This document shows, one piece after another, positions 31,124 through 52,806 of a stretch of 64,000 bases of DNA (position 1 is the stretch's first letter; every line of letters starts with the position of its first letter). Under the pieces are notes generated by a model. The model was not told the DNA's origin and searched no databases. It worked only from the letters and a program-made list of their open reading frames with translations. The position numbers were made by a program, and so were the translations under genes. The stretch is from a virus (taxonomy: Duplodnaviria; Heunggongvirae; Uroviricota; Caudoviricetes), in IMG/VR virus record IMGVR_UViG_649989924_000003; one strand, 5' to 3'.

Positions 31124-31152
31124 ATTATAACATATAATTTGTTTTTAGTCAA
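31124..31152 (-). promoter_or_regulatory. Consensus SigA-type promoter, copy 4 (minus strand)
   Basis: Reverse complement TTGACTAAAAACAAATTATATGTTATAAT; TSS about 290 nt upstream of the TerD-like ATG. Confidence 0.6.
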
Positions 31153-32890: not shown

Positions 32891-32979
32891 TGATATTTTC
32901 TATAGAAATATTAGCATCTCCTACCAAATATTTTATGACGAACACTCACTTTTTGCGTGTTGCTTTATAAAATAATGAT

Positions 32980-33054
32980 GGTGATTGTAGCACAATGGTA
33001 GTGCGGTGGATTGTGGCTCCAACTATACGGGTTCGACTCCCGTCTTTCACACCA
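32980..33054 (+). tRNA. tRNA-His(GTG)-like with G-1, probably defective or chimeric acceptor end
   Basis: D-arm GCAC/GTGC, anticodon loop TTGTGGC, T-arm ACGGG-TTCGACT-CCCGT and CCA encoded. The acceptor has two T-T mismatches (5-68, 6-67) and discriminator A73 opposite G-1. Confidence 0.5.
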
Positions 33055-33456
33055 AAGAAGAAATTTATTATAATGAAAAGACATCTGGGCATTTTGTGCC
33101 CATAAGTGATTTCACAATACAAGAGAACAATAACTTTATCAGATATAATCAAAGAAGGTAAATTTTAAATCAGTCATAACAAAAGAACTTATGTATCTGC
33201 GAAGTTGTGCCAGTAACATGAGACCGACGTAAAAGGCAATAGGGGACAATGACTCATATCAATTGAGAAACAGAAGAAAAACTTGGAAAAGCCTATGTTA
33301 GACACTTGAAGAGTTAGGGTTCATAGGAAAGTTCGCAATATATTTATATTTCAATACTTAGATTTAAGTGAATTAGAAATAAAAAAGACTCTATAAATGA
33401 TATTCATTTATAGAGTAAGATTCTATTTATTTTTTTTTTGCTTATGAAGAATAATA

Positions 33457-33711
33457 CTATTTAAAACTACCCACACGAGAATAGAAATTAAATGAAAAGG
33501 ATATAAAAATCCATTTTTTATTTAATTCTTCTGTGATATGAGGAAGATATCCATTGAAATATACAAACAAATATATTGAAATAAAAGAAACTATTAATCC
33601 TCCCTCAATAAATATAATGTATTTTTTTAAATCATTTTTTTTAATAAGTTTTAGAATATTAATAAAGATTAATAATAAAGTAATGGTTTCAATTAAAAAG
33701 TAAAATATCAT
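33457..33711 (-). CDS. small 2-TM membrane protein
   Basis: 84 aa; overlaps the upstream secreted-protein gene stop (4-nt overlap). Confidence 0.4.
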   Translation of the reverse strand: MIFYFLIETITLLLIFINILKLIKKNDLKKYIIFIEGGLIVSFISIYLFVYFNGYLPHITEELNKKWIFISFSFNFYSRVGSFK

Positions 33712-34511
33712 TTTTTCACATAAGTTCCTTTTCCATACATTATTCCAGGGTCTTTAGCAATTGGATAAGTTGGCCATAAATCAGATGCAGAATGACCATA
33801 CCATTTTCCTTGATAAGAAGTATTATATGCTGCATGAATAAGTCCTACACCAGCTTCATGGGCTCTTATATATGGTCTTTGTTTCGTAAAAGTACTGTAT
33901 TCTTCTAATATAAGATATGCACCAATAAAAGTTGTTCCGCAACCAAGCCAAGTTGCAAAAGCTGTTGCTATACTCTTTTGTATTCCTTTGTTTATAAGAT
34001 GATTAACAGCTTTAGTTAAGCTCCATCCAGCAATTTCTGTAATACTACCTTTAAACACTGAAACATATGAACTTGAATTAAACCCTGCCACCATATTTTT
34101 TACTTCATTGTAAGTCATATATTCAACACTTTTCATCCATACATTACCATTACTATTAACATTTGGTGCTCCACTCGTATATTTCCAATAGGCACCATTT
34201 GGTGCAGTTCCGTGAGATGTACCACTTAAAATGCCATCAAATAAACCAAATGTTGATACTGTTGGAACTTGTAAAGACACTATAGCTTCTTTACCCTTTT
34301 CTTCTAAATACTGTGTAAACATCGGCGAGGTTTCTTCATTTAAAATATAAGGGTTTTCAGCACTTCCGTCACCAGCAATAATAGATTCAGATATTTCTTT
34401 TTCATAAATATCATCTAAATCTGCTGCGAATACTGGGGTTACATTTATAGCAGCAAAAGTTAATGCTAAAATTGATACCCCAACAAAAAAATTCTTAAAA
34501 CTGAGCTTCAT
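33708..34511 (-). CDS. secreted protein of unknown function
   Basis: Signal peptide ILALTFAAINVTPVFA; 267 aa. Confidence 0.5.
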   Translation of the reverse strand: MKLSFKNFFVGVSILALTFAAINVTPVFAADLDDIYEKEISESIIAGDGSAENPYILNEETSPMFTQYLEEKGKEAIVSLQVPTVSTFGLFDGILSGTSHGTAPNGAYWKYTSGAPNVNSNGNVWMKSVEYMTYNEVKNMVAGFNSSSYVSVFKGSITEIAGWSLTKAVNHLINKGIQKSIATAFATWLGCGTTFIGAYLILEEYSTFTKQRPYIRAHEAGVGLIHAAYNTSYQGKWYGHSASDLWPTYPIAKDPGIMYGKGTYVKK

Positions 34512-34705
34512 AATACATTCCTCCCTTTTGAAACTCTTGAAATAAGAGTTGATTTATAATATAAATGTAGCATGATTTAAAGAAATTGTAAATATGTAAC
34601 AGGTTTTTATATGATTTTATACTTTGCAAAAGAAAGTAATAAGTTAAGTATTATAAATTTAAATAAATAAAAGGTACTAAAGTATCTTAATGAGGTGATT
34701 TTTAA

Positions 34706-35308
34706 ATGATATCAAAAGCTGTTGAAGATGAATTTAATCATCTTGTCACTTCTCAAAAAAACTTTTTCAACGACCATTCAGAAAATGTGTCAATGTATAT
34801 AAAAAGATTTGTTGAGAGATTGGACAAGGATATCCCTTCGTTAAACTTAACTGATTTATTTAAGTTTCATGTTGAATTGGCGGCTCTTGTTCATGATATA
34901 AGGAAACTTGCTATTCCTTTGGAAATTCTTTCAAAAAAGAAAACATTAACAAATAGGGAATATCAGATTATTCAAAATCATACTCAATATGGAACATATT
35001 ATCTCTGTAATCTTTTTAAATACTGTAAAACAGATGAAGATTTTGATTTTGCAAGCGTTTGCCAAAATATTGTCTTATATCATCATGAAAGAAATAATGG
35101 GAGTGGATATTTGCAGAATTTAAAGGGAGATACTATCCCTTTAGAAGCAAAAATAGTTGCAATTGTAGATAGTTATGATGCTTTAACATCTCAAAGATGC
35201 TACAAGCAAACACTAACGACGCAAGAGGCTATTCAGAGATTATTGGAAGAATCTTCTCAATATGATGAAAGATTGCTGAAAGTATTTATAAGGAGTTTAA
35301 AAGAGTAA
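34706..35308 (+). CDS. stand-alone HD-GYP domain phosphodiesterase
   Basis: HD (LVHDIRK), HHERNNGSGY (HHExxDGxGYP-like), DSYDALTSQRCYK. Confidence 0.7.
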   Translation: MISKAVEDEFNHLVTSQKNFFNDHSENVSMYIKRFVERLDKDIPSLNLTDLFKFHVELAALVHDIRKLAIPLEILSKKKTLTNREYQIIQNHTQYGTYYLCNLFKYCKTDEDFDFASVCQNIVLYHHERNNGSGYLQNLKGDTIPLEAKIVAIVDSYDALTSQRCYKQTLTTQEAIQRLLEESSQYDERLLKVFIRSLKE

Positions 35309-35335
35309 AAAGAATAAAAGAACGGAGGTGAGATA

Positions 35336-35545
35336 ATGAAATATAAACTAGAAATACAGAGTAATGGATTCAATATTGAAGAAAGCAGAATCATTAAGGA
35401 AGTTAAGGATTCCTTAAAACATAAAAAAATAATTCTTAACAAGATTAATGATTTGGAAATCTATTATGTAACTGATAAAAAGATTATTTATTATAATGGG
35501 CTATATAATGATGAAATCGTTAAAGGTGAAATCTATATTATATAA
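35336..35545 (+). CDS. hypothetical small protein
   Basis: 69 aa, GGAGGTGAG RBS upstream. Confidence 0.4.
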   Translation: MKYKLEIQSNGFNIEESRIIKEVKDSLKHKKIILNKINDLEIYYVTDKKIIYYNGLYNDEIVKGEIYII

Positions 35546-35700
35546 ATCATGATAGAATACAACAGTTCTATTTTTCTTTATCCTAATAATCTATGGTAAA
35601 ATAGAATTATGGAAATCGTGAGAGGACCTGTATAATATTGGCTGTTCACTTGGAGAGGTGAATGGCTTTCTTTTCACGATTTTTATAAGTATTCAGTGAG

Positions 35701-35961
35701 GTGAAGACAATGTCATATACTGAAAAAAGACATAATAGAGCAGTTTCTAGAAAGAATGAATTCAGGATTATTGAAAGAAAGAAAAAGATTTTGGATAGTT
35801 ATGGTGAGGGAGTTTTAGAGGAATTCACAAATGGGCAAACACATAGACTTGCTAAAAGTAAAATCCATTGCAGCTGTCCAATGTGTCAGGCAAAGACAAG
35901 AGCAATTGGATGGAAACATTCTGATAAAGTAAAGATTGAAAGATGCAATTATGTAGAATAA
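35701..35961 (+). CDS. small basic Cys-pair protein
   Basis: CSCPMC plus C-terminal Cys; 86 aa. Confidence 0.4.
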   Translation: MKTMSYTEKRHNRAVSRKNEFRIIERKKKILDSYGEGVLEEFTNGQTHRLAKSKIHCSCPMCQAKTRAIGWKHSDKVKIERCNYVE

Positions 35962-36280
35962 AGTTCCATAGTTTATAAATATTATATTATGATAAGGAAA
36001 AGACGTATCAAATGAGGTATGTCTTTTTCTTTATATAATGACAGCAGAGGGAAAACAGATAAATATTTGTTGTTTTCATAAATATATATAAAAAATTATT
36101 GTAAAAATAACAAATAAATGATATAATAGACTCATAAAGAAAGGACAGGTGCAAATAAATGACAAAGCATATAAAAAAAGAATGCACCTGTCTGCATTCT
36201 TTTTTTGAGGTGAAGACATGAAATAAGAAAGTTTAACAAATAAGAATGAAACAATTGAATAAAAAGAAAGGAGGTAGATT

Positions 36281-37738
36281 ATGTTAGATTTTTTAATGAA
36301 TACTGGAGTGATTACAAGTGTTTTAGTAGGAGCTCTTATTTTAGTGATTGTATTGACAGGATATGTCAAGGCATCACCAGACACTGCGTATATTATTTCA
36401 GGACTGAGAAAACAACCAAAGGTTTTAATTGGGAAAGCAGGAATTAAAATTCCATTTCTAGAGAAGAAAGATGAATTGAATTTACAGTTAATTCCCATTG
36501 ATGTCAAAACGTCTAGTGCTGTACCAACTGCTGACTATATCAACATTAATGTAGATGCAGCAGTCAATGTCAAGATTAGTGATAACAGTGAACGTTTAGG
36601 ATTAGCTGCACAGAACTTCTTGAATAAGAGAGTTGATTATATTGCCAATGTTGCAAGAGAAGTTTTGGAAGGGAATATGCGTGAAATCGTAGGACGTATG
36701 AATCTTGAGGAAATGGTTTCCGATAGACAGAAGTTTGCTGAATTGGTAAAGGAGAATGCTGAACCTGATTTGGCAAAGATGGGTTTGGATATTGTTTCGT
36801 TTAATGTTCAGAATTTTGTTGATGGTAATGGTGTTATTGAAAATCTTGGGGTTGACAATATTGTAAAGATTCAAAAAAATGCAGCAATTTCTCGTGCTGT
36901 GAGTGAAAGAGATATTGCTCAGGCTCAGTCAAAAGCATTCCAAGAAGCAAATGATGCAAAAATTGCTGCTGAAACAATCATTGCAGAAAAGAATAATGAA
37001 TTAGCTATCAAAAAAGCTGAATTAAAGAAGACTGCAGATGCAAAACAAGCTGAAGCAGATGCAGCATATACAATTCAGCAGGAACAGTCTCGTAAAGCAA
37101 TTGAAATTGCAACAGCTGACGCAAATATTATGAGACAGGAAAAAGAAATTGAATTGAGACGTAAAGACGTTGAAGTTACAGAACAGGAACTTGATGCAAA
37201 AATCAAGAAGCAAGCTGAAGCAGAAAAATTTGCTGCACAGCAAAGAGCAGAGGCTGATTTATATGCACGTCAGCAAAATGCAGAAGCGTGGAAATTTGAG
37301 CAGGAAAAAGAAGCTCAAGCCAAGAAAGCACAAGCTGAAGCCTTAAAATATCAAATGGAGCAGGAAGCCTCAGGTATCCGTGCAAAAGGGGAAGCAGAAG
37401 CCAAGGCTATTGAAGCCAAAGGTATTGCTGAAGCTGAAGCATTAGATAAAAAAGCTGAAGCGATGAAAAAATATGGCGAAGCAGCAATTGCAGAAATGTA
37501 CTTCAATGCATGGCCAAAAGCAGTTGAAGCGGCAGCCAAACCACTTGAAAAGATTGGCAACATTACAATGTATGGTGAAGGGAATAGCGCAAAACTGATT
37601 GAGGATGTCATGAAGACAACTCATCAAGTAAATACAGGAATGGAACAAGGGTTGGGCTTAAATCTTAATCAGATTCTTGGGTCATTAGTTGGAGTGAAAG
37701 CATTGGAAAAAATGAGTAATGATAAGAGAGAGGATTAA
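36281..37738 (+). CDS. flotillin-like SPFH/band-7 protein
   Basis: N-terminal TM, SPFH core, long Ala/Glu/Lys/Gln coiled-coil repeats. Confidence 0.8.
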   Translation: MLDFLMNTGVITSVLVGALILVIVLTGYVKASPDTAYIISGLRKQPKVLIGKAGIKIPFLEKKDELNLQLIPIDVKTSSAVPTADYININVDAAVNVKISDNSERLGLAAQNFLNKRVDYIANVAREVLEGNMREIVGRMNLEEMVSDRQKFAELVKENAEPDLAKMGLDIVSFNVQNFVDGNGVIENLGVDNIVKIQKNAAISRAVSERDIAQAQSKAFQEANDAKIAAETIIAEKNNELAIKKAELKKTADAKQAEADAAYTIQQEQSRKAIEIATADANIMRQEKEIELRRKDVEVTEQELDAKIKKQAEAEKFAAQQRAEADLYARQQNAEAWKFEQEKEAQAKKAQAEALKYQMEQEASGIRAKGEAEAKAIEAKGIAEAEALDKKAEAMKKYGEAAIAEMYFNAWPKAVEAAAKPLEKIGNITMYGEGNSAKLIEDVMKTTHQVNTGMEQGLGLNLNQILGSLVGVKALEKMSNDKRED

Positions 37739-37772
37739 TACCTCTCTTTTTAATAAAATATGAGGTTCAAAA

Positions 37773-38093
37773 ATGTGGAAAGAGAAAAAAGAAAGTTATG
37801 TATTGGAGTATTGCTACCAAAATGGTTTCGTTTCAATACCCTTCAAATTCTCCAAAAGTCTTACCTTAAAGATTGTAACTTATACAGATTTAGAAGTCAC
37901 TGGTCTTAGGACAGCAAAACTCCTTTGCAATTTGAAGGGTGCAGGCAAGGTTGCATTATGGAAGATAAAACAAGATATTAAGGCAAAAGAAAATTATCTC
38001 ATAACAGATGAAAAATATCTTCAAGATGCTTGTTACAATCTTTATTTATCTTCTCATATTCTTTACATAGTGAAAATGGATACAAAAAAATAA
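37773..38093 (+). CDS. hypothetical protein
   Basis: 106-aa ORF. Confidence 0.4.
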   Translation: MWKEKKESYVLEYCYQNGFVSIPFKFSKSLTLKIVTYTDLEVTGLRTAKLLCNLKGAGKVALWKIKQDIKAKENYLITDEKYLQDACYNLYLSSHILYIVKMDTKK

Positions 38094-38108
38094 ATAAGAG
38101 GAAATAGG

Positions 38109-38183
38109 ATATGAATGATGGTACCCAATATAGGAATCGAACCTATAATTGATGGTTCGTAGCCATCTGTTTTATCCATTAGA
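38109..38183 (-). tRNA. tRNA-Arg(ACG)
   Basis: Cloverleaf read by hand: acceptor ACCCAAT/ATTGGGT, anticodon loop CTACGAA, T-arm ATAGG-TTCGATT-CCTAT, CCA encoded. Confidence 0.55.
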
Positions 38184-38191
38184 CTAATTGG

Positions 38192-38265
38192 GTATGTTTT
38201 TTGGAGGCCTCGACCAGACTTGAACTGGTATAAATAGGGTTGCAGCCTATTGCATAGCCATTCTG
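38192..38265 (-). tRNA. tRNA-Cys(GCA)
   Basis: Anticodon arm ATAGG-CTGCAAC-CCTAT, T-arm ACCAG-TTCAAGT-CTGGT. Confidence 0.55.
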
Positions 38266-38319
38266 CCACGAGGTCGCAAATATTTTCTTTTTGTTTTACA
38301 ATATTTTAACTTTATATTT

Positions 38320-38649
38320 TCATTTAATGACCCATTGAAGTTTTGAATCATCAGTAAAATATAATTCTCCTCCATAATCAGAGCACCAACTTTTGTCCAA
38401 ATTGACTTTTTCTTCATTGTTTTTCAATTCTATTTCATAATCTTGTTTCATCTGAGAAACTAAATTATCTTCTCGTGAAATTGAAATATTACTCTTCAAA
38501 GTTTTGTTTATAATAACATTTCCACTAATAAGACTATCTTTAAATTCATCTATAGTGGCTTTTTTAATGATTTTTTTATATATTTTTTTATTTTGCACTT
38601 TCATAACAACAAATCTGTAATACTTTGCGTATTTGAAAATTAGGCTCAT
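38320..38649 (-). CDS. hypothetical protein (insertion within tRNA array)
   Basis: 109-aa ORF. Confidence 0.4.
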   Translation of the reverse strand: MSLIFKYAKYYRFVVMKVQNKKIYKKIIKKATIDEFKDSLISGNVIINKTLKSNISISREDNLVSQMKQDYEIELKNNEEKVNLDKSWCSDYGGELYFTDDSKLQWVIK

Positions 38650-39400
38650 ATCTTCCTGCTAAATAAATAATTATTGGGTTTACATAGTTACTAAATGTAA
38701 AAAGTCTTTTTTCTTTATCATCTAATTTTAGAGGAAATAAAATGATATAATCATATTTTTTATTTTCATCTAATTCACATAAAGAAGAACAAGTGTCCTC
38801 AACTCCATTATAGTTATAGATAATTTCATAATTCAAAAAATAATTATTTATAAGTTTTTTAATATCCTCATACTCTTTTATTTCTTTCAAAGGCTTTGCT
38901 TTCATTTTCTTTTGATTAAGAACATCAATAATAATATTTATGTATTCTTCTGTGACATTTTTATTATTAATAAATATAGGCTCAGATGTAAAATCGGTTG
39001 TACGATATAACTGAATTGTTTTTTCTCTATATATTTCATTTAAAACGTTAGCTACTTTATCAATATGATTGACATAAATATCCTTTTTCAAGAAAATATT
39101 TTCAATATAAAACTTTAAAACATCTTGCCAATTATTATTAACAAATAAATTTTCCATATCTTCTGGTGATGTAACATAAAAAAGTGTTTTTAACTTATCC
39201 ATCAAAATCTCTGATTTTATAAATGAGTCTTTTGTAAACATACTACTTAATTTATTATAATTGTCTATAGTTTCCTCTACATTTTCTCGAAGATGTTTTC
39301 CATGAAAAGCTTCTTCAAGGTTATTATAATATTTTTCCTTATACAAAAAACCATCTGAATATGTCGGTGACAGATTTAACTCTTTAATATTTGTTATCAT
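38588..39400 (-). CDS. hypothetical protein (insertion within tRNA array)
   Basis: 270-aa ORF. Confidence 0.45.
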   Translation of the reverse strand: MITNIKELNLSPTYSDGFLYKEKYYNNLEEAFHGKHLRENVEETIDNYNKLSSMFTKDSFIKSEILMDKLKTLFYVTSPEDMENLFVNNNWQDVLKFYIENIFLKKDIYVNHIDKVANVLNEIYREKTIQLYRTTDFTSEPIFINNKNVTEEYINIIIDVLNQKKMKAKPLKEIKEYEDIKKLINNYFLNYEIIYNYNGVEDTCSSLCELDENKKYDYIILFPLKLDDKEKRLFTFSNYVNPIIIYLAGRYEPNFQIRKVLQICCYESAK

Positions 39401-39676
39401 ATAACACCTCTCTCGTCCATCTAAAGGCTTTATAGTAGCCTTTTAAAAACTAGTTAAAATAAATCAATACTCCTTAAAAACCCCTGCTGGCATCTGCCAT
39501 ATATATTCTGGAGTGCTTTTCAGTATTCTGACTTACCATGCCAATATCAGAAGTTTGATGAACTGAAAAGAATTTTTTGAATAAGGTTTTACATGGATAT
39601 TTATATACCTTATACCTGTAGAGGAAAATTTTAGAATATGTTATCAGCAAAAACAATTTATATCCTAAATAATATT

Positions 39677-39704
39677 TGGTGCTCATAGTAGGATTTGAAC
39701 CTAC
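39677..39704 (-). pseudogene. Orphan tRNA 3' fragment (T-arm + acceptor 3' strand + CCA)
   Basis: Minus strand GTAGG-TTCAAAT-CCTAC-TATGAGC-A-CCA with no matching 5' half. Confidence 0.5.
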
Positions 39705-39716
39705 ATATGGGCATTT

Positions 39717-39792
39717 TGGTAGGAATAATAGGAATCGAACCTATATTGCACGATTATCGGTCGTGAGTACTCACCAGTTGTACGATACTCCT
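39717..39792 (-). tRNA. tRNA-Ile(GAT), C33 anticodon loop
   Basis: D-stem GTAC/GTAC, anticodon arm CACGA-CCGATAA-TCGTG, T-arm ATAGG-TTCGATT-CCTAT. Confidence 0.5.
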
Positions 39793-39795
39793 ATA

Positions 39796-39869
39796 TGGTA
39801 TCCGTTGGTGGTAATGCTCCACCGTCTTCAACTTGTAAGGATGATGTTTTCCTTTTAAACTAAACGGAT
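39796..39869 (-). tRNA. tRNA-Val(TAC) with atypical T-loop
   Basis: Acceptor ATCCGTT/AACGGAT, anticodon loop CTTACAA, T-arm GGTGG-AGCATTA-CCACC. Confidence 0.45.
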
Positions 39870-39870
39870 A

Positions 39871-39947
39871 TGGTCTCGATAAAAGGATTTGAACCTTTAC
39901 AAACTCGGTCCCAGGCCGAGTGCACTACCAAATTATGCTATATCGAG
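39871..39947 (-). tRNA. tRNA-Pro(TGG), C33 anticodon loop
   Basis: Anticodon arm CTCGG-CCTGGGA-CCGAG, T-arm AAAGG-TTCAAAT-CCTTT. Confidence 0.55.
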
Positions 39948-40074
39948 AGGAAAGAGAATATCTCTTCCGTATTTATGCTGGACCAGACATAATATGTTTA
40001 TCTATCACTACAATAGACTGGACTCCGAGATACTTCCCAATATCTTATCTTTACCTTATTTCATGAAGGAAATT

Positions 40075-40148
40075 GGCACCTCTTGAAGGAATTGAACCCT
40101 CATCGTGGAGGTAGAAACTCCATGCTCTATCCATTAAGCTAAAGAGGT
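40075..40148 (-). tRNA. tRNA-Arg(TCT)
   Basis: Acceptor ACCTCTT/AAGAGGT, anticodon arm TGGAG-TTTCTAC-CTCCA. Confidence 0.6.
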
Positions 40149-40351
40149 AATAATGATAACTATTTATCGCAATAGCCTTAGCATCTGACTCCTTATACAG
40201 AATATACTTTCATTTTCTATTCTTTCATGCACTTTCAAATATACTAAGAAAATATATATTTTCGTCAAAGCCAACCTCCTAGCTCGTGACTATCTGCATC
40301 CATTGCTTATGCAGTTTCCACATGGTTTTATTTAATAAATTATATAATCAT

Positions 40352-40428
40352 TGGTGGACGATATAGGATTCGAACCTATGACCAGTCGGTTATGAGCCGA
40401 CAGCTCTGACCATCTGAGCTAAACGTCC
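40352..40428 (-). tRNA. tRNA-Met(CAT), elongator type
   Basis: Anticodon arm GTCGG-CTCATAA-CCGAC, T-arm ATAGG-TTCGAAT-CCTAT. Confidence 0.55.
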
Positions 40429-40440
40429 ATATTTTTAAAA

Positions 40441-40519
40441 TGGTGGAAACTTTGGAATTCGAATCCAACTGATTTCCTGTGTGCAAAACAGGTGACCACA
40501 CCTAGCAGTCCCAGTTCCC
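40441..40519 (-). tRNA. tRNA-Ala(TGC)
   Basis: G3-U70 wobble pair present, anticodon arm CCTGT-TTTGCAC-ACAGG. Confidence 0.6.
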
Positions 40520-40531
40520 AATAATACATTA

Positions 40532-40619
40532 TGGCGCTGACTATAGGACTCGAACCTATGCTAGATTTACATCTAGTACGGTTTAGCAAACCGCTGCTTT
40601 ACCACTCAGCCAAGTCAGC
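40532..40619 (-). tRNA. tRNA-Ser(GCT), class II
   Basis: Long variable arm; anticodon arm GCGGT-TTGCTAA-ACCGT. Confidence 0.6.
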
Positions 40620-40627
40620 AAAAATAT

Positions 40628-40714
40628 TGGTACTCCTAATGGGAATCGAACCCATACGAGCTTTTGCCCACAGAAGTTTAAGTTCTGTATGTCTACCGAT
40701 TTCATCATAGGAGT
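40628..40714 (-). tRNA. tRNA-Leu(TAA), class II
   Basis: Anticodon arm CAGAA-CTTAAAC-TTCTG, long variable arm. Confidence 0.6.
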
Positions 40715-40717
40715 ATT

Positions 40718-40802
40718 TGGTCTTCTCGAAGAGATTTGAACTCTTACGCTATAAAGCACTAGTTTCTAAAACTAGCATGTCTACCTATTCCATCACGAGA
40801 AG
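40718..40802 (-). tRNA. tRNA-Leu(TAG), class II
   Basis: Anticodon arm CTAGT-TTTAGAA-ACTAG. Confidence 0.6.
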
Positions 40803-40807
40803 ATGAT

Positions 40808-40884
40808 TGGTGGTTTCAGATGGACTTGAACCAACGCTACGAGAAGTTTCAGTTATCTGCTCTACCAGATTGAGCTATGAAACC
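40808..40884 (-). tRNA. tRNA-Phe(GAA)
   Basis: Anticodon loop CTGAAAC, D-arm GCTC/GAGC. Confidence 0.6.
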
Positions 40885-40898
40885 AGATGATAAAATAT

Positions 40899-40973
40899 TG
40901 GCACCTCTGTAAGGAGTCGAACCTTAAGTTTTGGTTTTGGAGACCAATGTGTTCCCTTTTACACTACAGAGAT
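40899..40973 (-). tRNA. tRNA-Trp(CCA)
   Basis: Anticodon arm TTGGT-CTCCAAA-ACCAA. Confidence 0.6.
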
Positions 40974-40975
40974 AT

Positions 40976-41052
40976 TGGCATCAGGGAGAGGGCTCGAACC
41001 TCTAAATGTGGGAGTCAAGGTCCCATGTGCTTACCAGTTTCACCACCCTGAT
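40976..41052 (-). tRNA. tRNA-Gln(TTG), C33 anticodon loop
   Basis: Anticodon arm TGGGA-CCTTGAC-TCCCA. Confidence 0.55.
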
Positions 41053-41068
41053 ATCTAAATAGATTTAG

Positions 41069-41141
41069 TATACTTAGAAGTGGTTGAACCCTCATACCCT
41101 CTATTAGAAGTCGAGTGCATTACCAACTTTGCTACAAGTAC
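41069..41141 (-). tRNA. Degenerate tRNA-like gene (anticodon TCT, Arg-like), no encoded CCA
   Basis: Acceptor pairs only with two G-U wobbles; mismatches in anticodon and T stems. Confidence 0.3.
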
Positions 41142-41166
41142 AATATGTAATTATGAAATTTTTTAA

Positions 41167-41253
41167 TGGTGGGCCCCCCTGGATTCGAACCAGCAGCGTT
41201 TCTAATGTCACAGATTTACAGTCTGCTTCCTTCACCAATTTGGATAGAGACCC
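41167..41253 (-). tRNA. tRNA-Tyr(GTA), class II
   Basis: Anticodon loop CTGTAAA, long variable arm. Confidence 0.6.
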
Positions 41254-41260
41254 ATATGTT

Positions 41261-41347
41261 TGGCGCTCAGTGAGGGACTCGAACCCCCAAGTCCTTTCAG
41301 ACCAACTGTTTTCAAGACAGCACGACTACCAATTATCACAACTGAGC
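41261..41347 (-). tRNA. tRNA-Ser(TGA), class II
   Basis: Anticodon arm GCTGT-CTTGAAA-ACAGT. Confidence 0.6.
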
Positions 41348-41530
41348 GTTTTTAAATTATAAATATTGATTGACCTCACAACACTCCTATGAAATCACCC
41401 AATGGTCTATTGACAAGAAAGATATCATCTCAGAGTTTTTAATTATCTACTGTAAACTTTTTTTTACAATAATAAATAATCACAAGCTATACTTTTATGG
41501 TAGATACTGGAGAAAGTAACTAATGATTAA

Positions 41531-41604
41531 TGGTATCCGAGGTGGGAGTCGAACCCACGATATCTGATAGAGCGCTAAAGCGTAAACTGCTTGCCAACTC
41601 GGAC
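41531..41604 (-). tRNA. tRNA-like gene with canonical acceptor and T-arm but no canonical D/anticodon arms (isotype undetermined)
   Basis: T-arm GTGGG-TTCGACT-CCCAC and acceptor GTCCGAG/CTCGGAT+A+CCA are clear. The body contains an AAGC-AGTTTAC-GCTT hairpin that does not fit cloverleaf positions. Confidence 0.3.
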
Positions 41605-41609
41605 ATATT

Positions 41610-41686
41610 TGGCGGACCCTACAGGACTTGAACCTGTGACCCTTACGTTAACAGCGCATCGCTCTAACCAACTGAGCTAAAGGTCC
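41610..41686 (-). tRNA. tRNA-Asn(GTT)
   Basis: Anticodon loop CTGTTAA, D-arm GCTC/GAGC. Confidence 0.6.
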
Positions 41687-41707
41687 ATAAAATAATAAAA
41701 TGATACT

Positions 41708-41782
41708 TGGAGTGGGTAAAGGGAATCGAACCCTCATCCTCTGCTTGGAAGGCAGATATACGAACCATTATACTATACCCAC
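41708..41782 (-). tRNA. tRNA-Gly(TCC)
   Basis: Anticodon arm TCTGC-CTTCCAA-GCAGA. Confidence 0.6.
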
Positions 41783-41786
41783 AATA

Positions 41787-41862
41787 TGGTGCCATCTGAG
41801 AGATTCGAACTCCCAACCAACTGATTACAGGTCAGCTGCACTTCCAGTTGTGCTAAGGTGGC
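41787..41862 (-). tRNA. tRNA-Thr(TGT), C33 anticodon loop
   Basis: Anticodon arm GCTGA-CCTGTAA-TCAGT. Confidence 0.55.
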
Positions 41863-41866
41863 AAAT

Positions 41867-41941
41867 TGGCGGAACATAGGAGAATTGAACTCCTATCTCT
41901 TGATAGACAGTCAAGTATATTTTCCATTATACGAATGCTCC
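41867..41941 (-). tRNA. tRNA-Asp(GTC)
   Basis: Anticodon arm CTTGA-CTGTCTA-TCAAG. Confidence 0.6.
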
Positions 41942-41942
41942 A

Positions 41943-42019
41943 TGGTTGCAGAGGCAGGATTTGAACCTGCGACCTCAGGATAATGAGTCCTGCGAGCTAC
42001 CAAACTGCTCTACTCTACG
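41943..42019 (-). tRNA. Initiator tRNA-fMet(CAT)
   Basis: C1-A72 mismatch, D-arm GAGC/GCTC, anticodon arm CAGGA-CTCATTA-TCCTG, 3' end GCAACCA. Confidence 0.6.
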
Positions 42020-42125
42020 ATATTTCACAAAAGAAAAAGTTCCTCATACGAGAAACAATAAAAAAGAAAATTTAAAATATCTCGTTTATTGTTTGTTTTT
42101 CACTTCCTTTCGTGATTTCATAGTT

Positions 42126-42154
42126 ATTATAACATATAATATAAAATTAGTCAA
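42126..42154 (-). promoter_or_regulatory. Consensus SigA-type promoter, copy 5 (minus strand), about 100 nt upstream of the tRNA array
   Basis: Reverse complement TTGACTAATTTTATATTATATGTTATAAT. Confidence 0.6.
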
Positions 42155-43346: not shown

Positions 43347-45059
43347 TTATTCATCCCACCAGTTATAATTTTTAATGTCATCTTCAATCTGATGAGAGCT
43401 TGAGGATGATTGTTTTTTTATTTGCCTGATTGCTTCACTTTCTTGAATTCCCGGAGAAAACCATGCTGGTTTATCTGAGTTGTTCTTCAAATCATTAAAC
43501 AAAAATGTTAGAAAGCAGTTTATTTGATTATCTGGAGTCTTGAAAGAATATCCAGAGGTTTTTATTCTATCAAGAATATTAAGCATAATTGAATCAAAGG
43601 ATGCCTGATGAATAATAAGTTTTTCAAGATTCATTATTAACAAATCCCCTTCTATCATTTTCGCTTCTTTACTCATATAGAATTTCTTAAAGAGCTTCAG
43701 TTTATTGAAGCAGGCATTGAGAAAGTCTTTATCAGTGTTTTCTATAAAGATTGAATTATAAATAGAAGAATTGATTTCATTAATTAAATTAATTAATAAA
43801 GAATCGTTTTTATTATTTTCAGTATAAGTATTTAAAGTTTTATTAATGTTGATATCTTTTTCGCTATTTTGTTTCTTTCTTTTTGAAGAAATTGTTTCTT
43901 TCATATCTGATGAAATGATGGCTCTTGATGGAGTCTTGATATCTGTCAAATTCTCTGAATTATGGCTCTTTTCAATTTTTTCTTCATCATCACAAGTCAA
44001 ATTCACGAAATTGTGGCTCTCATCTAATATGTCATAATCATCAAATTGTGGCTCACTGGATTCTTTCATGTCTATATCTTCAAGGTATTGCTTTACAAAT
44101 TGATATATTTTATCTGGGAAGTTTCTTGTTCCATTTTCCCATTTGGAATATGTCTGTTTATAAAGGCTTAATGAATATTTTTTATTTATAGCCTCTACTA
44201 TCTGTTTTTGGGTTAAGTTATGCTTTAAGCGAAGCTGTTTAACATATGTATAATTTCTTTTATTTTTATTGATAATTAAATCTTCTTTGAGTTGGTCCAT
44301 GCGACTCTTTAGATATAGTTTTTTGTTTTTGCTGTCTAAGCTTTCAAATTCTTCAACATTATCTTCAAAGTTGAAAAGTTTTAATAGATAGAAACGGGTA
44401 TCCTGTGAAAATGCTCTATATTCAAATAATAAACCACAGGCTTTTAAAAGATATCTTCCTCTTTTTAATGCTGACTGTCCAAGCCCTAATTTCTTTTCCT
44501 GAGTTTCAAGAGATTCTTGGAAGTATATTCTTTCTTTGTCATCCACAAAATAATTCATTTGAGATAAACACATTGTATCAAAGTATATAGAATATTGAAG
44601 TTTTGTAGCTAGAGGTAGATTGTTATAGATATCATCAAATAATTCATTTGGAAACCTAAAGAAATTGTAACTATCTAAATCTGTTTCATAATAAAACTCA
44701 TCTGTTTCATCTTTTTTATTATAGTTATATAGATATATCTTATTATTTCCAACGCTTCGCTTATAGTTGATGAGTCCAACCCTCTTTAAATCTGCTCTTG
44801 CTCGGCAACATGTTGATTCACTAATTTTTAATTTATTCATTATATCAGAATCTGAGTAGATAATATAAGGACCACTGTTATCTTTATAAGTGGTAATGAT
44901 ATATCTGTTTAAATAGAGAGAATACATAAACTTTGCTGGAACAGAAAGTTTTTTGAATCTATTATCTGAAAATAAGACTTTTGGTATAGATAAGAAAGCA
45001 TCTATTTTTGTTGTATCATTAATATTATAGTATTTAGATTCTTTATCCATAGAAAACAC
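43347..45059 (-). CDS. RepA_N-type replication initiator with internal HTH
   Basis: N-terminal region (LSIPKVLFSD..LSVPAKFMYSLYLNRY...RVGLINYKR) resembles Firmicute RepA_N proteins. Central HTH LTQKQIVEAINKKYSLS. Confidence 0.55.
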   Translation of the reverse strand: MFSMDKESKYYNINDTTKIDAFLSIPKVLFSDNRFKKLSVPAKFMYSLYLNRYIITTYKDNSGPYIIYSDSDIMNKLKISESTCCRARADLKRVGLINYKRSVGNNKIYLYNYNKKDETDEFYYETDLDSYNFFRFPNELFDDIYNNLPLATKLQYSIYFDTMCLSQMNYFVDDKERIYFQESLETQEKKLGLGQSALKRGRYLLKACGLLFEYRAFSQDTRFYLLKLFNFEDNVEEFESLDSKNKKLYLKSRMDQLKEDLIINKNKRNYTYVKQLRLKHNLTQKQIVEAINKKYSLSLYKQTYSKWENGTRNFPDKIYQFVKQYLEDIDMKESSEPQFDDYDILDESHNFVNLTCDDEEKIEKSHNSENLTDIKTPSRAIISSDMKETISSKRKKQNSEKDININKTLNTYTENNKNDSLLINLINEINSSIYNSIFIENTDKDFLNACFNKLKLFKKFYMSKEAKMIEGDLLIMNLEKLIIHQASFDSIMLNILDRIKTSGYSFKTPDNQINCFLTFLFNDLKNNSDKPAWFSPGIQESEAIRQIKKQSSSSSHQIEDDIKNYNWWDE

Positions 45060-45565: not shown

Positions 45566-45967
45566 TTAAATGTGTGTGAGCTTAAAGCGCGGATGAGTTG
45601 TTAAGTTTGCAGCTTCAATAATAATAATCTCTTTTTTTGAATATTCTGTTTCATGGGTTATTGTCTTGATATATTTTAATCTAATTCGTTCTCCCTTTCT
45701 TGTAATGTAGTGCGAGAATCCATCAAATTGATTATGAGTTTTGTAGTATTTCTTTAAAAGTTCAAAAAGCTTTATTTTAACGTCATAGTCAAAAGAATTC
45801 TGACAATCTGCACATACAAAATTAATCTGTCGAGGCTTGCTCTCATCCATTTTAAATCCTTTGCCATTCAAATCCTTAATATTGGAGATATTCTGTCCAA
45901 CATGACATGCACATATCAATGCAATTGAGCCCCAATCATTTAAGGGGAAGCTATCTAACTGAGACAT
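45566..45967 (-). CDS. hypothetical Cys-containing protein
   Basis: 133-aa ORF. Confidence 0.45.
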   Translation of the reverse strand: MSQLDSFPLNDWGSIALICACHVGQNISNIKDLNGKGFKMDESKPRQINFVCADCQNSFDYDVKIKLFELLKKYYKTHNQFDGFSHYITRKGERIRLKYIKTITHETEYSKKEIIIIEAANLTTHPRFKLTHI

Positions 45968-46268
45968 TGATATTAAAAACAGCTAATTCAGAGTCTGTAT
46001 CTGCTATTTTTTCTAAAATAAACACAGGTGTAGAAATTTCTAGAATTTTGTTTTCAGTTTCTAAAAGCTTCCCTGCTCTGGCAATTGTTTTCATTGTGTT
46101 GGCAATGGCTCTGTTACCCATAGCCTTAATAGTTACTGTACTTCCTTCTTCAAGGAAATGCATTAAAGAACTTGAACATTTTGTAACATATGCAGGGATA
46201 TCTTGAATCCCTTCTTCAGTTCTGATAACTCCTTTCGTGATTTTCATAACCTTATTTCCGTTTTTCAT
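45951..46268 (-). CDS. SpoVS-like (Alba-related) protein
   Basis: TIKAMGNRAIANTMKTIARAGKLL resembles SpoVS IQAIGAGALNQAVKAVAIARG. Confidence 0.5.
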   Translation of the reverse strand: MKNGNKVMKITKGVIRTEEGIQDIPAYVTKCSSSLMHFLEEGSTVTIKAMGNRAIANTMKTIARAGKLLETENKILEISTPVFILEKIADTDSELAVFNINVSVR

Positions 46269-46364
46269 TTTCTACCTCCGTAGCTTTGCTACAGGAAATA
46301 TTATATCATGTATTTATGAAATCAGTAAATTCGTTTGTGAATATAACAAATATACATATTTATC

Positions 46365-47117
46365 TTAAATATTAAATAAATGCCCAACTATGAGAGTTGC
46401 ATTATCTTCTCCGCCTGCCTCATTAACTTTCTTTAAAACCATATCGACTCCTTCATTTATTGTTTGAGCTGTTGCTAGGATTGATATGACTTCATCAGGT
46501 GTTATATATCTATAGATACCATCACTTGTCATTAATACAACATCATCCTCTTTTAGATTTCCTGTTAAAAGGATATCTGCAGAAACTTCTGGAAATACTC
46601 CCAATGCAGATGTTAGACGACATCTTCCAGGATGTATATAGAAATCTTTTTCTTCAATTTTACCTGCCATCAACTCTTCATATGTTTCAGAATAGACTCT
46701 ATTCACTCTTTTAAACTGTCCATTTCGAATAAGCTGTATTTCCGTATTTCCAGTTGACGCTGTTAAGAAGTTAAATGATGTTTTACTGATTACTGATATT
46801 GATAGTGAAGAATAAATATTTCTGTATTTTTCACTCATTGCGTTGATTGATAGGAATGCCTGTGAGACTACATAAAAACCGAAATCTAGAGAGTCTCTAA
46901 TATCTATAATGGTTGTTTTATCATTAATGATTTTATGTAGATACTGGCTCATAATATGAATAGCGAGCTGACCTATATTAATATCTCCAGCCTGCCCACC
47001 ATTACCATCAGCTACCATAAGTATATAATAATCCCCTATTTCCTCCATTAAAATTCCATCTTCCAGCTTATCAAGCTGACATTTTGCTGTATTCCCATAA
47101 AAATAAAGCTGCTTCAA
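46365..47117 (-). CDS. PP2C-family Ser/Thr phosphatase
   Basis: LMVADGNGGQAGD and C-terminal GGEDNATLIVG motifs. Confidence 0.7.
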   Translation of the reverse strand: MKQLYFYGNTAKCQLDKLEDGILMEEIGDYYILMVADGNGGQAGDINIGQLAIHIMSQYLHKIINDKTTIIDIRDSLDFGFYVVSQAFLSINAMSEKYRNIYSSLSISVISKTSFNFLTASTGNTEIQLIRNGQFKRVNRVYSETYEELMAGKIEEKDFYIHPGRCRLTSALGVFPEVSADILLTGNLKEDDVVLMTSDGIYRYITPDEVISILATAQTINEGVDMVLKKVNEAGGEDNATLIVGHLFNI

Positions 47118-47247
47118 TTTTAATCACCTCTTTTTTCATCGTACTCTCCTATTATATATCAATATTTGTTAAAAGAACAAATATAAATGCATAGAGTTAT
47201 GAATAAAACAAACCATGTTATAATAATGAGGTAATGGAGGTGATTAC

Positions 47248-48237
47248 ATGAAGTTTAAAAAGATTGTTATGAGTATCATGGGTATTGGACTCTCATTAAA
47301 TCTTGTAGGAGTCTCGCCTGCATATGCAACAGATAATCCTTTGAAAGATTCCCAAGAGAAGGAGCAGGAAAATTTGAAGAAAAAAGCTCAAAAAGAAGAT
47401 ATTTCTAATAAGGCTGACGAAAATCAACCCTTTAGCATAAAGGATGAGGCTTATTCAATCTATGCATCATCTAAAGAGTCTTTTAATAATTTACAGATGC
47501 AATATGGCCATTTAGATGGAGACTCTCAAGCTGGTCAAGGATTTAAATCATATCTTAAGATAATAAGTGAGGATAAGGAAAATCAGCAGTTACAAGCAAG
47601 ATTAAATCAAATGGCACAAGGAGATTATAGTGTGAACGTTTCTGCTGATAAATATGATTCATTGAAGGACGCTGTTGAAGGAGTGACTGATGAACAAAAG
47701 GAATCTAATATGAATACTCAGGAGAATGAGGAGTCTAAAAGTAAGGATTCCCAGATTATAAATTCAGATGATTACAATAGTGATATAGCTTTTGGTTCGG
47801 GTTATCAGTCATATGTTCAGCAATATACCAATAAATATGAACAGAATAAAAAAGATACTCAAGATAGCTCAGAGGAGGTAACTTCGCAACAAACCAAGGA
47901 ATTTGGCAAAAGCAAGGAGAATAGTCAAAGTCAAAGTGAGAAAGATAAACAGGAAGTTGCTCAAAAAGAAAAAGAGAATAGGGAGGCTATTCAAAGAAAT
48001 TACAATAAGCAATTTGATTCTCAAAAGAATGAGAATAGCCAAAGTCTTTCCAAAAACGAAAAGGCTAATGAGAAGTTTTTAGAGTCTGGAAAGAATAAAA
48101 GTATTCTTAAAAGCTATAATCAATTGAAAAATGCGATTGTTGCTTCTCAAAAGGCTGTTTCTAATGCTGGAAAATCAGCAAGTGCATCAAAGAGTTATGA
48201 AAATAAAGTAAAAAACATAATTGCAAAATCTAATTAG
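47248..48237 (+). CDS. secreted low-complexity (Q/E/K/S/N-rich) protein
   Basis: Signal peptide then a compositionally biased sequence. Confidence 0.5.
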   Translation: MKFKKIVMSIMGIGLSLNLVGVSPAYATDNPLKDSQEKEQENLKKKAQKEDISNKADENQPFSIKDEAYSIYASSKESFNNLQMQYGHLDGDSQAGQGFKSYLKIISEDKENQQLQARLNQMAQGDYSVNVSADKYDSLKDAVEGVTDEQKESNMNTQENEESKSKDSQIINSDDYNSDIAFGSGYQSYVQQYTNKYEQNKKDTQDSSEEVTSQQTKEFGKSKENSQSQSEKDKQEVAQKEKENREAIQRNYNKQFDSQKNENSQSLSKNEKANEKFLESGKNKSILKSYNQLKNAIVASQKAVSNAGKSASASKSYENKVKNIIAKSN

Positions 48238-48712
48238 GAGGAGAAAAATGAGAAAATTAATAAGAATCATATTGGTTTTCTCTTTCTTTTTGAATATTTA
48301 TGGTTGTCAGAATGTTGACAGGAAAGAAATGTTAGATTACAAAGAGATAGAGATTGCCAATCGTCATAATGATGAGGATTTAATTGATAAAGCAAAAGAT
48401 ATTTATACTTCGAATCTATCCAAGGCACAGGAAGATGAGGAAAGGCAAGTCGCTACAGTCAAATATTTGGATGATATTTATCAGATAGCTTCTACACGAG
48501 TAAATCTGGATTTAGATATACTAAATGTTTTTTCTGAAGATTATGAAACATATATTGCTACAATGCAGGCATATTCGGAAGTATATCTTAAGGAACGTGG
48601 AGAATTAGTTAAAAATCAGTCTTTATCAAAAAAAGAAAATATTGATAAAACAAGTACAGGAAAAATGCTAAAACTTTTATATCAGGCAATTGATGAGCAA
48701 GAGACCCAGTAG
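48221..48712 (+). CDS. lipoprotein
   Basis: Lipobox NIYGCQN after hydrophobic leader. Confidence 0.5.
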   Translation: MQNLIRRRKMRKLIRIILVFSFFLNIYGCQNVDRKEMLDYKEIEIANRHNDEDLIDKAKDIYTSNLSKAQEDEERQVATVKYLDDIYQIASTRVNLDLDILNVFSEDYETYIATMQAYSEVYLKERGELVKNQSLSKKENIDKTSTGKMLKLLYQAIDEQETQ

Positions 48713-48738
48713 GGTCTCTTTCGTTTATATAATAGCAT

Positions 48739-49731: not shown

Positions 49732-50069
49732 CTGACTACCTCTTTGTTTCTATATGGTCCTTTTCTTTTTGGATGAATATCCATAGAGATTGTAAAGATT
49801 GATGTCTTATCCTTGTATCGGGAAATATATTCATAGGTTTTGGAAAGAATGTTGAGAGAATCGGTGTTTATATAAAGGCTGATATTATTGGGAATATAGA
49901 TTTCATTGAATAGGTAATTTGTAAGTTCCTCATTTGTAAGAAATTCATCAAATCGGGGGTTTTGAAGATATAGCCAAGCAAGATATGACTGTAGGAATTC
50001 CTTATAGATATCCCCCATTTTCTCTAAAGCTTTTGATTTTTTTTTCTTAGCTTGTTCTTTTAGGCTCAT
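49728..50069 (-). CDS. hypothetical protein
   Basis: 113-aa ORF, 4-nt overlaps on both sides. Confidence 0.45.
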   Translation of the reverse strand: MSLKEQAKKKKSKALEKMGDIYKEFLQSYLAWLYLQNPRFDEFLTNEELTNYLFNEIYIPNNISLYINTDSLNILSKTYEYISRYKDKTSIFTISMDIHPKRKGPYRNKEVVR

Positions 50070-51206: not shown

Positions 51207-51258
51207 ATTCCTAAACCTCTTCTTTAGCAGAAAAAGAGGCTTTATAGCCCCTTTTCAC

Positions 51259-52785: not shown

Positions 52786-52806
52786 AAAGTTTCATTCCTC
52801 CTTCCT

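Follow-up and report, generated by a model that had tools for sequence, protein, structure and literature searches.

A dense tRNA gene array beside repA in a family of large RepA_N gut elements

Why would a replicon that appears to live beside a bacterial chromosome carry its own tRNA genes for nearly every amino acid? The question is raised by the stretch of DNA analyzed here (64,000 nucleotides, hereafter the window), filed as IMG/VR virus record IMGVR_UViG_649989924_000003 and corresponding to the terminal 64 kb of scaffold GL636582.1 (189,856 bp) of Coprobacillus cateniformis/sp. 29_1 (assembly GCA_000186525.1). An initial annotation, made from the letters of the window alone, had described a minus-strand tRNA array of about 24 genes. 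We find that such an array accompanies the replication gene repA in related elements with strongly diverged RepA proteins and that several of its tRNAs share unusual anticodon loops. Our preferred reading, to which we give roughly even confidence, is that the array is a functional tRNA operon that provides the element and its carrier cells with a host-independent tRNA pool, partly resistant to tRNA attack.

The tRNA gene set and its decoding repertoire

tRNA genes were called with ARAGORN (default and relaxed settings) and, independently, with Infernal against Rfam at a gathering score of 29 bits. ARAGORN reports 22 tRNA genes in the window, of which 21 fall within 38119-42019 on the minus strand and one, tRNA-His (GTG), lies on the plus strand at 32981..33054. 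Infernal likewise retrieves 21 minus-strand tRNAs, scoring 39.8 to 67.9 bits; it adds one at 39799-39869, which relaxed ARAGORN calls as tRNA-Val (TAC) at 39796-39869, and misses only a 79-nt tRNA-Ala (TGC) at 40441-40519 with a G3:U70 pair and a long D-loop. In total, 22 minus-strand tRNA genes are packed into 3.9 kb (23 genes counting His), matching the definition of a mobile-element tRNA array unit as at least about 20 dense, mostly co-oriented tRNA genes on an extrachromosomal or mobile replicon. The about 24 genes of the initial annotation correspond to these 22 plus degenerate pieces: most of its hand-folded cloverleaves were recovered in the ARAGORN check that it had proposed, with Rfam in agreement; the 21 isoacceptors that it named proved correct, with one qualification given below; and the degenerate members are real, being a pseudo-tRNA-Glu, a decaying tRNA-Arg (TCT) and a tRNA 3' fragment. 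It had overlooked a 1.44-kb interruption of the array, tRNA-His and the absence of tRNA-Lys.

Each of the following four-codon boxes is served by one tRNA with U at position 34: Leu (TAG), Val (TAC), Ser (TGA), Pro (TGG), Thr (TGT), Ala (TGC) and Gly (TCC). The Arg box is read by ACG, the two-codon boxes by tRNAs with G34 or U34, and Trp by CCA. The array is thereby predicted to be a near-complete, minimal decoder with one tRNA per codon box. Two of its tRNAs carry the anticodon CAT. One is of initiator type (41943..42019, minus strand; C1xA72 mismatch, loop CUCAUUA with U37) and 77-78% identical to the initiators of Listeria, Bacillus and Mycoplasmopsis. The second (40352-40428, minus strand) shares 79-84% identity with the second CAT tRNA of the reference clusters, compared with 70-77% for elongator Met, the reference CAT genes being those that we take to be Met, Ile2 and fMet from the order of B. 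subtilis trnB. This second gene had been annotated as Met; a CAT tRNA is indeed present, but by similarity it is of the Ile2 (lysidine) type.

The array is without Lys, without elongator Met and, in the window copy, without a functional Glu. For comparison we use numbered loci on other contigs (L007 to L031), some of which are near-identical copies of the window element and others relatives with diverged RepA. No tRNA-Lys was found in the window with 10 kb on either side, in the clade of L024 and L028, or in the clade of L008, L011 and L029. Lysine accounts for 9.9% of the codons of the element, and AAA (6.8%) and GAA (6.0%) are its two commonest codons. That the commonest codons are without an array tRNA argues against simple codon supplementation. 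This bears on one of the two functions that the initial annotation had suggested, namely that the array supplies tRNAs for codons that the AT-rich element (G+C about 31%) uses more than its host, which would allow faster translation and cheaper carriage. The anticodons do suit codons ending in A or U (U34 in the four-codon boxes; TAA, TCT and TTG), matching a G+C content at third codon positions of 24%. The host genome, at about 32-34 mol% G+C, is close to the element, which would leave little bias to compensate, and the set is near-complete rather than selective. The authors who described the Bifidobacterium breve megaplasmid pMP7017 read its tRNAs as a means of fitting the tRNA pool to the codons that the plasmid uses (PMC10832533). 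With AAA and GAA lacking a functional array tRNA here, and Lys absent in three clades, we regard such tuning as a fairly unlikely explanation of the present array.

The tRNAs themselves are unusual when set against a control of 51 cellular tRNAs from chromosomal clusters of Listeria, Bacillus and Mycoplasmopsis. Their mean G+C content is 46% (range 37-53%), compared with 57-59% in the controls, and their gene order is unlike that of the canonical Bacillota cluster. Four carry C33 in place of the near-universal U33, with ARAGORN and Infernal alignments concordant: Thr (TGT; 41787..41862, loop CCUGUAA), Gln (TTG; 40976-41052), Pro (TGG; 39871-39947) and Ile (GAT; 39717-39792), all on the minus strand. 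The initiator-type tRNA and Asp (GTC; 41867..41941, minus strand, loop CUGUCUA) carry U37 in place of the near-universal purine, as does the intact Glu found in other copies. Counting that intact Glu (from L014), C33 occurs in 4/24 and U37 in 3/24 tRNAs, together 7/24 against 0/51 controls (Fisher p = 1.7e-4), the deviations being measured against the universal consensus and tRNAs of other Bacillota and Mycoplasmatota rather than those of C. cateniformis.

The same loop changes recur in distant relatives: C33 in Pro and Gln of L024, in Thr of L028 and in Ile of L008 and L029; U37 in Asp of every clade (for example L024, L008 and L029) and in Glu of L024; and a pyrimidine at position 37 of fMet in L008 and L029. 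Odd loop positions common to distant relatives are not what random decay would leave. The second function suggested by the initial annotation, resistance to host defences that target tRNAs, gains circumstantial support from these conserved non-canonical loops, while codon-usage compensation is weakened by the lack of array tRNAs for AAA and GAA. AT-rich tRNAs, a differing order and the C33/U37 loops also indicate that the array is not a captured chromosomal cluster. Further departures include the non-canonical T-loop AGCAUUA of tRNA-Val and the 11-nt D-loop and 7-nt variable loop of the 79-nt tRNA-Ala, whose length is kept in all clades, including L008, L029 and L031. Non-G1 5' ends were considered as an additional oddity and rejected, as they are also frequent in the cellular controls.

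Conservation of the array across a family of elements

The array shares a strand with repA and begins about 1.3 kb downstream of it, three small open reading frames (ORFs) lying between, and this layout is kept in relatives: with diverged RepA, the same succession of an exonuclease-to-RepA module, three small ORFs and a tRNA array is found. In L024 and L028, RepA is 45-47% identical to that of the window and at least 18 tRNAs lie beside repA (L024). RepA of L008, L011, L029 and L030 is 37-40% identical, with 25 tRNAs in L008 and L029. A more distant arrangement is seen in L031 (RepA 37% identical), where at least 10 tRNAs lie about 6 kb downstream of repA, and no tRNAs were found near repA in L025 and L009 (RepA 30-33% identical). 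The window thus belongs to a previously undescribed, prevalent family of large RepA_N gut elements with the array at a fixed place beside repA.

For twelve tRNAs of L024, identity to the orthologues in the window clade is 89-95%, while the repA DNA of the two is 58% identical and the spacers are mostly unalignable. The contrast between tRNA and repA identity points to purifying selection, and we regard it as strong evidence that such selection acts on the array tRNAs. Within the window element, tRNA-Asn of L007 carries compensatory changes in its anticodon stem. Stem pairs were compared between clades on independently called cloverleaves, a comparison that shows valid tRNAs and their divergence rather than strict covariation.

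Relatives carry further tRNA-related genes. A gene for a PTH2-type peptidyl-tRNA hydrolase (E = 4e-32) lies within the array of L024 at 16147-16542. At L008 13064-13198 and L011 1882-2017, a tRNA-like gene carries about 43-60 additional nt within or close to its anticodon arm, scoring 48-51 bits in Rfam along about 135 nt, and a weak tRNA-like sequence at L008 14794-14866, to which ARAGORN assigns the anticodon TTA, has a non-U33 loop and lacks CCA.

The neighborhood of the array is also partly shared. A stand-alone HD-GYP protein with the motif HHERxxGSGY is encoded beside it at window 34706-35308 (plus strand), L008 17134-17826 and L029 17199-17819; the proteins of the window and L008 are 34% identical, RepA of L008 and L029 being 37-38% identical to that of the window, and the protein could be a cyclic-dinucleotide phosphodiesterase, judging from its motif. 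A flotillin gene likewise lies beside the array in L008 and L029. Upstream of repA, the window (45566-53472, minus strand) carries a module with a DEDD exonuclease, a SpoVG-like, a RuvC-like and a PP2C/SpoIIE-like protein and several unknowns; its equivalent is present in all clades (L022, L024, L028, L029 and L031), and it is probably the replication and recombination module of the element family.

Promoter, layout and variation of the locus

The dedicated promoter that had been proposed at 42126..42154 (minus strand) stands: TTGACT-17-TATAAT with a TG extended -10 agrees with the sigma-70 consensus at 11/12 positions, is the top match in 6 kb and is conserved in the relatives L024, L008 and L011. 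It belongs to an element-wide promoter class, TTGACTAA-N10-TATATGWTATAAT, of which the window holds seven matches against 0.7 expected by chance. Besides the array promoter, perfect copies lie upstream of topB (7722-7750, plus strand), an ftsH-like gene (11734-11762, plus strand), rlaP (24864-24892, minus strand) and the ORFs of 72 and 658 aa (31124-31152, minus strand); a further match lies at 55283-55311 (minus strand).

Between the promoter and the first tRNA lies a structured leader of about 100 nt (42020..42119, minus strand). It consists of a Shine-Dalgarno-like purine box GAAAGGAAG, a terminator-like hairpin CTTCT..AGGAAG at 42039-42056 and a U/C tract that ends about 20 nt ahead of the first tRNA, and folds with a minimum free energy of -23.3 kcal/mol (z = -3.4). 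The same architecture is present in three further clades, with counterparts at L024 about 12760-12949, L008 about 12680-12813 and L011 about 1530-1662. Judged by its form, the leader resembles an intrinsic terminator placed between promoter and tRNAs and could act as an attenuator or a processing stalk.

Read along the minus strand, the locus starts with the terminator of an upstream 84-aa ORF, the promoter and the leader, followed by fMet, Asp, Thr, Gly (TCC; 41708..41782), Asn (GTT; 41610..41686), both of the latter called by ARAGORN and Rfam, and the pseudo-tRNA-Glu (41531..41604, minus strand), a sub-threshold match of 27.1 bits in which the 5' half of the anticodon arm is replaced. Gap A (41348..41530) is ORF-free, 183 nt long and exists as two alleles; a 43-nt stretch in it resembles L008 15223-15265. 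The genes after it are Ser (TGA; 41261-41347), Tyr (41167-41253), the decaying Arg(TCT)-b (41068-41141; 39.8 bits, without CCA), Gln, Trp (CCA; 40899-40973), Phe (40808-40884), Leu (TAG; 40718-40802), Leu (TAA; 40628-40714), Ser (GCT; 40532-40619), Ala and the Ile2-type CAT tRNA. Gap B (40149..40351) is again ORF-free, 203 nt long, with a weak promoter-like site at 40268..40241. It is followed by Arg(TCT)-a (40074..40148), gap C (39948..40073, 126 nt), Pro, Val, Ile (GAT), an orphan tRNA 3' half consisting of T-arm, acceptor strand and CCA (39677..39712, repeat family D1), an array-embedded ORF of 359 aa (38320..39400), Cys (GCA; 38202-38275) and Arg (ACG; 38119-38193), whose 3' end is an inversion/deletion breakpoint. 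All of these features lie on the minus strand.

The embedded ORF is frameshifted in the window at an A-run near 38590-38650, giving products of 270 aa and 109 aa; it had no Pfam or PHROG match and no homologue outside the element, and is thus an ORFan. The initial annotation had divided the array into three blocks with ORF-free gaps. The gaps indeed hold no ORF of 50 aa or more, but the 1.44-kb interruption at 38276-39716, in which the frameshifted ORF lies, makes five blocks rather than three. Searches against Rfam at E <= 1 returned no known non-coding RNA in the gaps. A 102-nt stretch of gap C is 84% identical to L024 15591-15689, the spacer after Arg(TCT) in an element whose repA DNA is 58% identical to that of the window, and within it a mini-ORF ATG AAA TAA is conserved; gap C gives no folding signal (z = -0.03) and no Rfam match.

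Variation was followed among copies of the element whose RepA is identical or 99% identical. tRNA-Glu (TTC) is intact in L007, L014, L015 and L016 (58 bits in L014) and dead in the window, L010, L012, L013, L017 and L018; its state is linked to the gap A allele, intact Glu going with an allele about 90 nt longer. Arg(TCT)-b has an extra 2-nt deletion in L013, L017 and L018, and nine tRNAs, Ser(GCT) through Arg(ACG), are missing from L015. The embedded ORF is intact (359 aa) in L012-L014, L017 and L018, replaced in L016 and absent from L015. In L007 and L010 the Cys-Arg segment is inverted, by which Ile and Arg lose their CCA ends. At L016 14166-14240, the anticodon of tRNA-Trp is changed from CCA to TCA, with one further change; such a tRNA would read UGA, as an opal suppressor or in Mollicutes-style Trp decoding.

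The displacement of tRNA-His from the array results from an inversion. A block of 5.2 kb (32927..38118) carrying tRNA-His, ORFs of 95 and 267 aa, HD-GYP, ORFs of 69 and 83 aa, flotillin and an ORF of 106 aa occurs in both orientations among copies. In L013, L014, L016 and L017, His lies 54 nt past Arg(ACG) on the array strand; in the orientation of the window it lies 5 kb away on the opposite strand, with at best a weak promoter ahead. An identical array SNP haplotype is found with both block orientations (L018 compared with L013 and L017). The predicted Arg-His junction had no match in IMG/VR and is present in the four copies with His on the array strand. The junctions of the block fall exactly within TACCA/TGGTA: one is the 3' end of tRNA-Arg(ACG), the other a remnant of a tRNA end at about 32927-32945. 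All breakpoints checked at the sequence level lie at (G)TACCA tRNA 3' ends or a remnant, and the L015 deletion is consistent with this (54-nt spacing between Leu(TAA) and His). No long inverted repeats were found flanking the 5.2-kb block; since only TACCA/TGGTA is common to its ends, a dedicated invertase site is not supported.

This degree of variation raises the possibility that the array is a decaying hitch-hiker, captured once and kept through its linkage to the replication region, with useless tRNAs whose odd loops would be early decay. The pseudo-Glu, the decaying Arg(TCT)-b, the nine-tRNA deletion, the inversions that cost Ile and Arg their CCA and the changed Trp anticodon would all fit. 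However, 18-25 good tRNAs (45-69 bits) stand beside repA in clades whose RepA is 37-47% identical, tRNA identity (89-95%) far exceeds that of repA DNA (58%), stems stay paired, and the odd loop positions are kept between clades and do not look random. Given this conservation, we consider a purely decaying hitch-hiker highly improbable; the pattern indicates instead that the family retains the array as a whole, with single genes apparently expendable.

The carrier element and the proposed role of the array

We read the carrier as a large, uncharacterized plasmid-like element of about 190-200 kb. The same element is present in two more isolate assemblies and in many human-gut metagenomes, its longest contigs measuring 183-204 kb and none being longer in isolates or metagenomes, and its RepA occurs in 448 blocks of the contig index. 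repA (43347..45059, minus strand) encodes a RepA_N plus HTH initiator (PF06970, E = 5e-15) whose N-terminal domain shares about 29% identity with staphylococcal RepA, that is, the RepA_N-domain initiator by which RepA_N plasmids of Bacillota are recognized. A ParA domain protein (55872-56825) and a ParB-like protein (56828-57856) follow. Domain matches bear out the neighborhood of RepA_N, ParA, Y-family polymerase and TopB that had been described, and the window further encodes an FtsH-like protease, an AAA_5/VWA pair, RlaP, SIR2 and PIN7. Its genes also include those for two DEDD exonucleases, an HD-GYP protein, flotillin, RecD2 and DHH/DHHA1. No rRNA was matched in the 64 kb by Rfam/Infernal, in line with the annotated lack of ribosomal genes. 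RepA relatives were found in none of 185,579 species-representative genomes (GTDB). Together with the RepA_N, ParA and ParB-like genes, contigs of at most about 204 kb and a tRNA order and composition that differ from chromosomal clusters, these results uphold the earlier view that the array is element-borne and not part of a chromosomal rrn-linked region.

Known plasmids and phages offer little to compare. Megablast of the array with 21.6 kb of flank against PLSDB and INPHARED returned a single 75-nt tRNA match and nothing more, and sensitive blastn of the array found generic tRNA similarity only, with at most 10-19% of the array matched per phage or plasmid record at 70-80% identity. The window region 14854-30829 encodes PIN7, a DEDDh exonuclease, an AAA_5 (MoxR/CobS-like) protein with a VWA partner, RlaP (an RNA-repair-type nucleotidyltransferase) and SIR2; PADLOC gave only generic DEDDh and HD (Cas3-HD) matches among ten neighboring proteins.

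The element could also be a jumbo phage-plasmid whose tRNA set sustains late translation once host tRNAs and chromosome are degraded in a lytic cycle. A 91.6-kb contig of the element bears the label of a viral operational taxonomic unit (vOTU) in one metagenome study, and long co-oriented runs of small unknown ORFs, a LAGLIDADG endonuclease and a Big_2 protein just beyond the window, the occurrence of AAA_5/VWA (CobS/CobT-like) pairs in large phages and the uniform promoter class across the element would suit a phage, as would the large tRNA sets typical of jumbo phages (PMC6409571). Set against this, none of the ORFs tested within the readable part of the element (about 84 kb, with about 115 kb unread) gave a capsid, portal, terminase or tail match. 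A PHROGs scan of ten large or unknown ORFs likewise returned no phage structural or packaging family, its sole structural-category match being a weak Ig-domain. A RepA scan of IMG/VR found no relative, and no phage in INPHARED is related to the element past isolated domains. RepA_N, ParA/ParB-like, TopB, Y-family polymerase and flotillin are, moreover, typical of large Firmicutes plasmids. We judge a lytic-cycle tRNA set unlikely, keeping in view that a phage-plasmid nature is possible given the contig labelled vOTU and the unread 115 kb.

Our preferred reading, an operon supplying a host-independent tRNA pool, would work as follows. Transcription would start at the strong sigma-A-type extended -10 promoter and run through the structured leader to give a polycistronic precursor, with weak internal starts possible in the gaps. 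Host RNase P and 3' exonucleases would process this precursor, as is expected from the CCA encoded in 22/23 tRNA genes (the exception being Arg(TCT)-b), and host synthetases and modification enzymes would charge and modify the tRNAs, including TilS acting on the Ile2-type tRNA. With their C33 or U37, Thr, Gln, Pro, Ile, fMet, Asp and Glu would be poorly attacked by anticodon-loop nucleases or similar toxins, and Lys and elongator Met would be omitted because no tolerated change would protect them. Completeness, conserved anticodon-loop changes and the consistent omission of the most-used isoacceptors fit such a counter-defense model better than codon compensation. The sequences establish the genes, the promoter motif, the conservation and selection across a family of elements and the odd loops; transcription, processing, charging and a role against tRNA depletion are predicted from them.

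This model has published precedents. Changes in the anticodon loop occur in the tRNAs of phages, which avoid isoacceptors attacked at the anticodon itself (PMC10264068), two reports describe phage tRNAs rescuing infection from tRNA-cleaving defenses (PMC11555353, PMC12409363), and mycobacterial plasmid tRNA arrays have been viewed as putative anti-defense (PMC12803027). A more specific form of the idea, which we advance tentatively, as a possibility that is more doubtful than not, sees the array as a nuclease-resistant plasmid back-up decoding set, in which C33 and U37 would be resistance mutations, the Lys and elongator Met anticodons toxin recognition determinants and the leader a device that switches the operon on when translation is compromised.

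Several points weigh against the reading as a resistant tRNA pool. No tRNA-targeting nuclease was identified in host or element, the host chromosome not having been searched; the sole nuclease or toxin lead is a toxSAS that attacks tRNA CCA ends, from Coprobacillus sp. D7 and not from strain 29_1. The distant relative L031 carries a tRNA-Lys, and Lys or elongator Met genes could sit in the unread part of the element. Single genes are dispensable in the population, as the decaying Glu and Arg(TCT)-b and the loss of nine tRNAs in L015 indicate. The C33 and U37 changes could stem from relaxed constraint or drift under AT pressure, and that the array tRNAs differ from those of the host is inferred from the universal consensus and other Bacillota.

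tRNA arrays on megaplasmids and phages are already established (PMC10832533, PMC5966550, PMC12803027, PMC6409571), and comparison with them defines what is distinctive here. The closest in kind is pMP7017, which has 20 tRNAs next to the replicase gene, of which 17 are highly transcribed (PMC10832533). Both are extrachromosomal elements of about 190 kb in gut bacteria, with about 20 tRNAs in a few tandem units beside a replication gene that are divergent from cellular tRNAs (PMC10832533). The two are, however, unrelated in sequence: pMP7017 is high-GC, conjugative and actinobacterial, and its tRNAs serve no more than 12 amino acids and are accompanied by a tmRNA and a manA RNA motif, whereas the present array covers 18-19 amino acids, has C33/U37 loops and holds no tmRNA or Rfam non-coding RNA; expression has been shown for pMP7017, the array described here being known from sequence. 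Mycobacterium plasmid, phage and chromosome arrays are similarly dense, with at least 20 tRNA genes, occur on mobile elements including giant plasmids and have a proposed anti-defense role (PMC5966550, PMC12803027), but they belong to another phylum and other replicons (linear plasmids in M. avium) and share no sequence similarity, and the conserved repA-adjacent position and the missing Lys and elongator Met are specific to the family described here.

The clusters of large lytic phages (T4, T5 and mycobacteriophage cluster C1) resemble the array in their AT-rich, non-canonical, tightly spaced tRNAs, loop changes, avoided isoacceptors and embedded ORFs (PMC10264068, PMC6409571). In contrast to these phages, the element shows no virion genes among the ORFs tested in its readable part, has plasmid-type maintenance genes and an embedded ORF that is no recognizable homing endonuclease, and persists stably in cultured isolates. 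Chromosomal rrn-linked clusters of Bacillota (Bacillus/Listeria trnB type) share about 21 co-oriented tRNAs, the adjacency of fMet and Asp and the encoded CCA; the array departs from them in lacking rRNA, in its order, in its G+C content (46% vs 58%), in the absence of Lys and elongator Met and in its C33/U37 loops, which occur in 0/51 controls.

The purpose of tRNA arrays on mobile elements is debated between codon supply and counter-defense, and the element described here offers an unusually clean test bed. It is widespread in the gut and present in cultured isolates, and it combines a near-complete set with loop anomalies conserved across clades and a consistent lack of the isoacceptors for the most-used codons. 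Natural variants can be compared directly; copies differ in whether Glu is intact, in whether nine tRNAs are missing, in the placement of His within the operon or away from it, and in the Trp anticodon (CCA, or TCA in one copy). These variants, the C33/U37 loops, the missing Lys and elongator Met, the fixed position beside repA and the conserved leader together set the family apart. If true, the nuclease-resistant reading would extend the idea of counter-defense by phage tRNAs to stably inherited plasmids of a culturable gut commensal.

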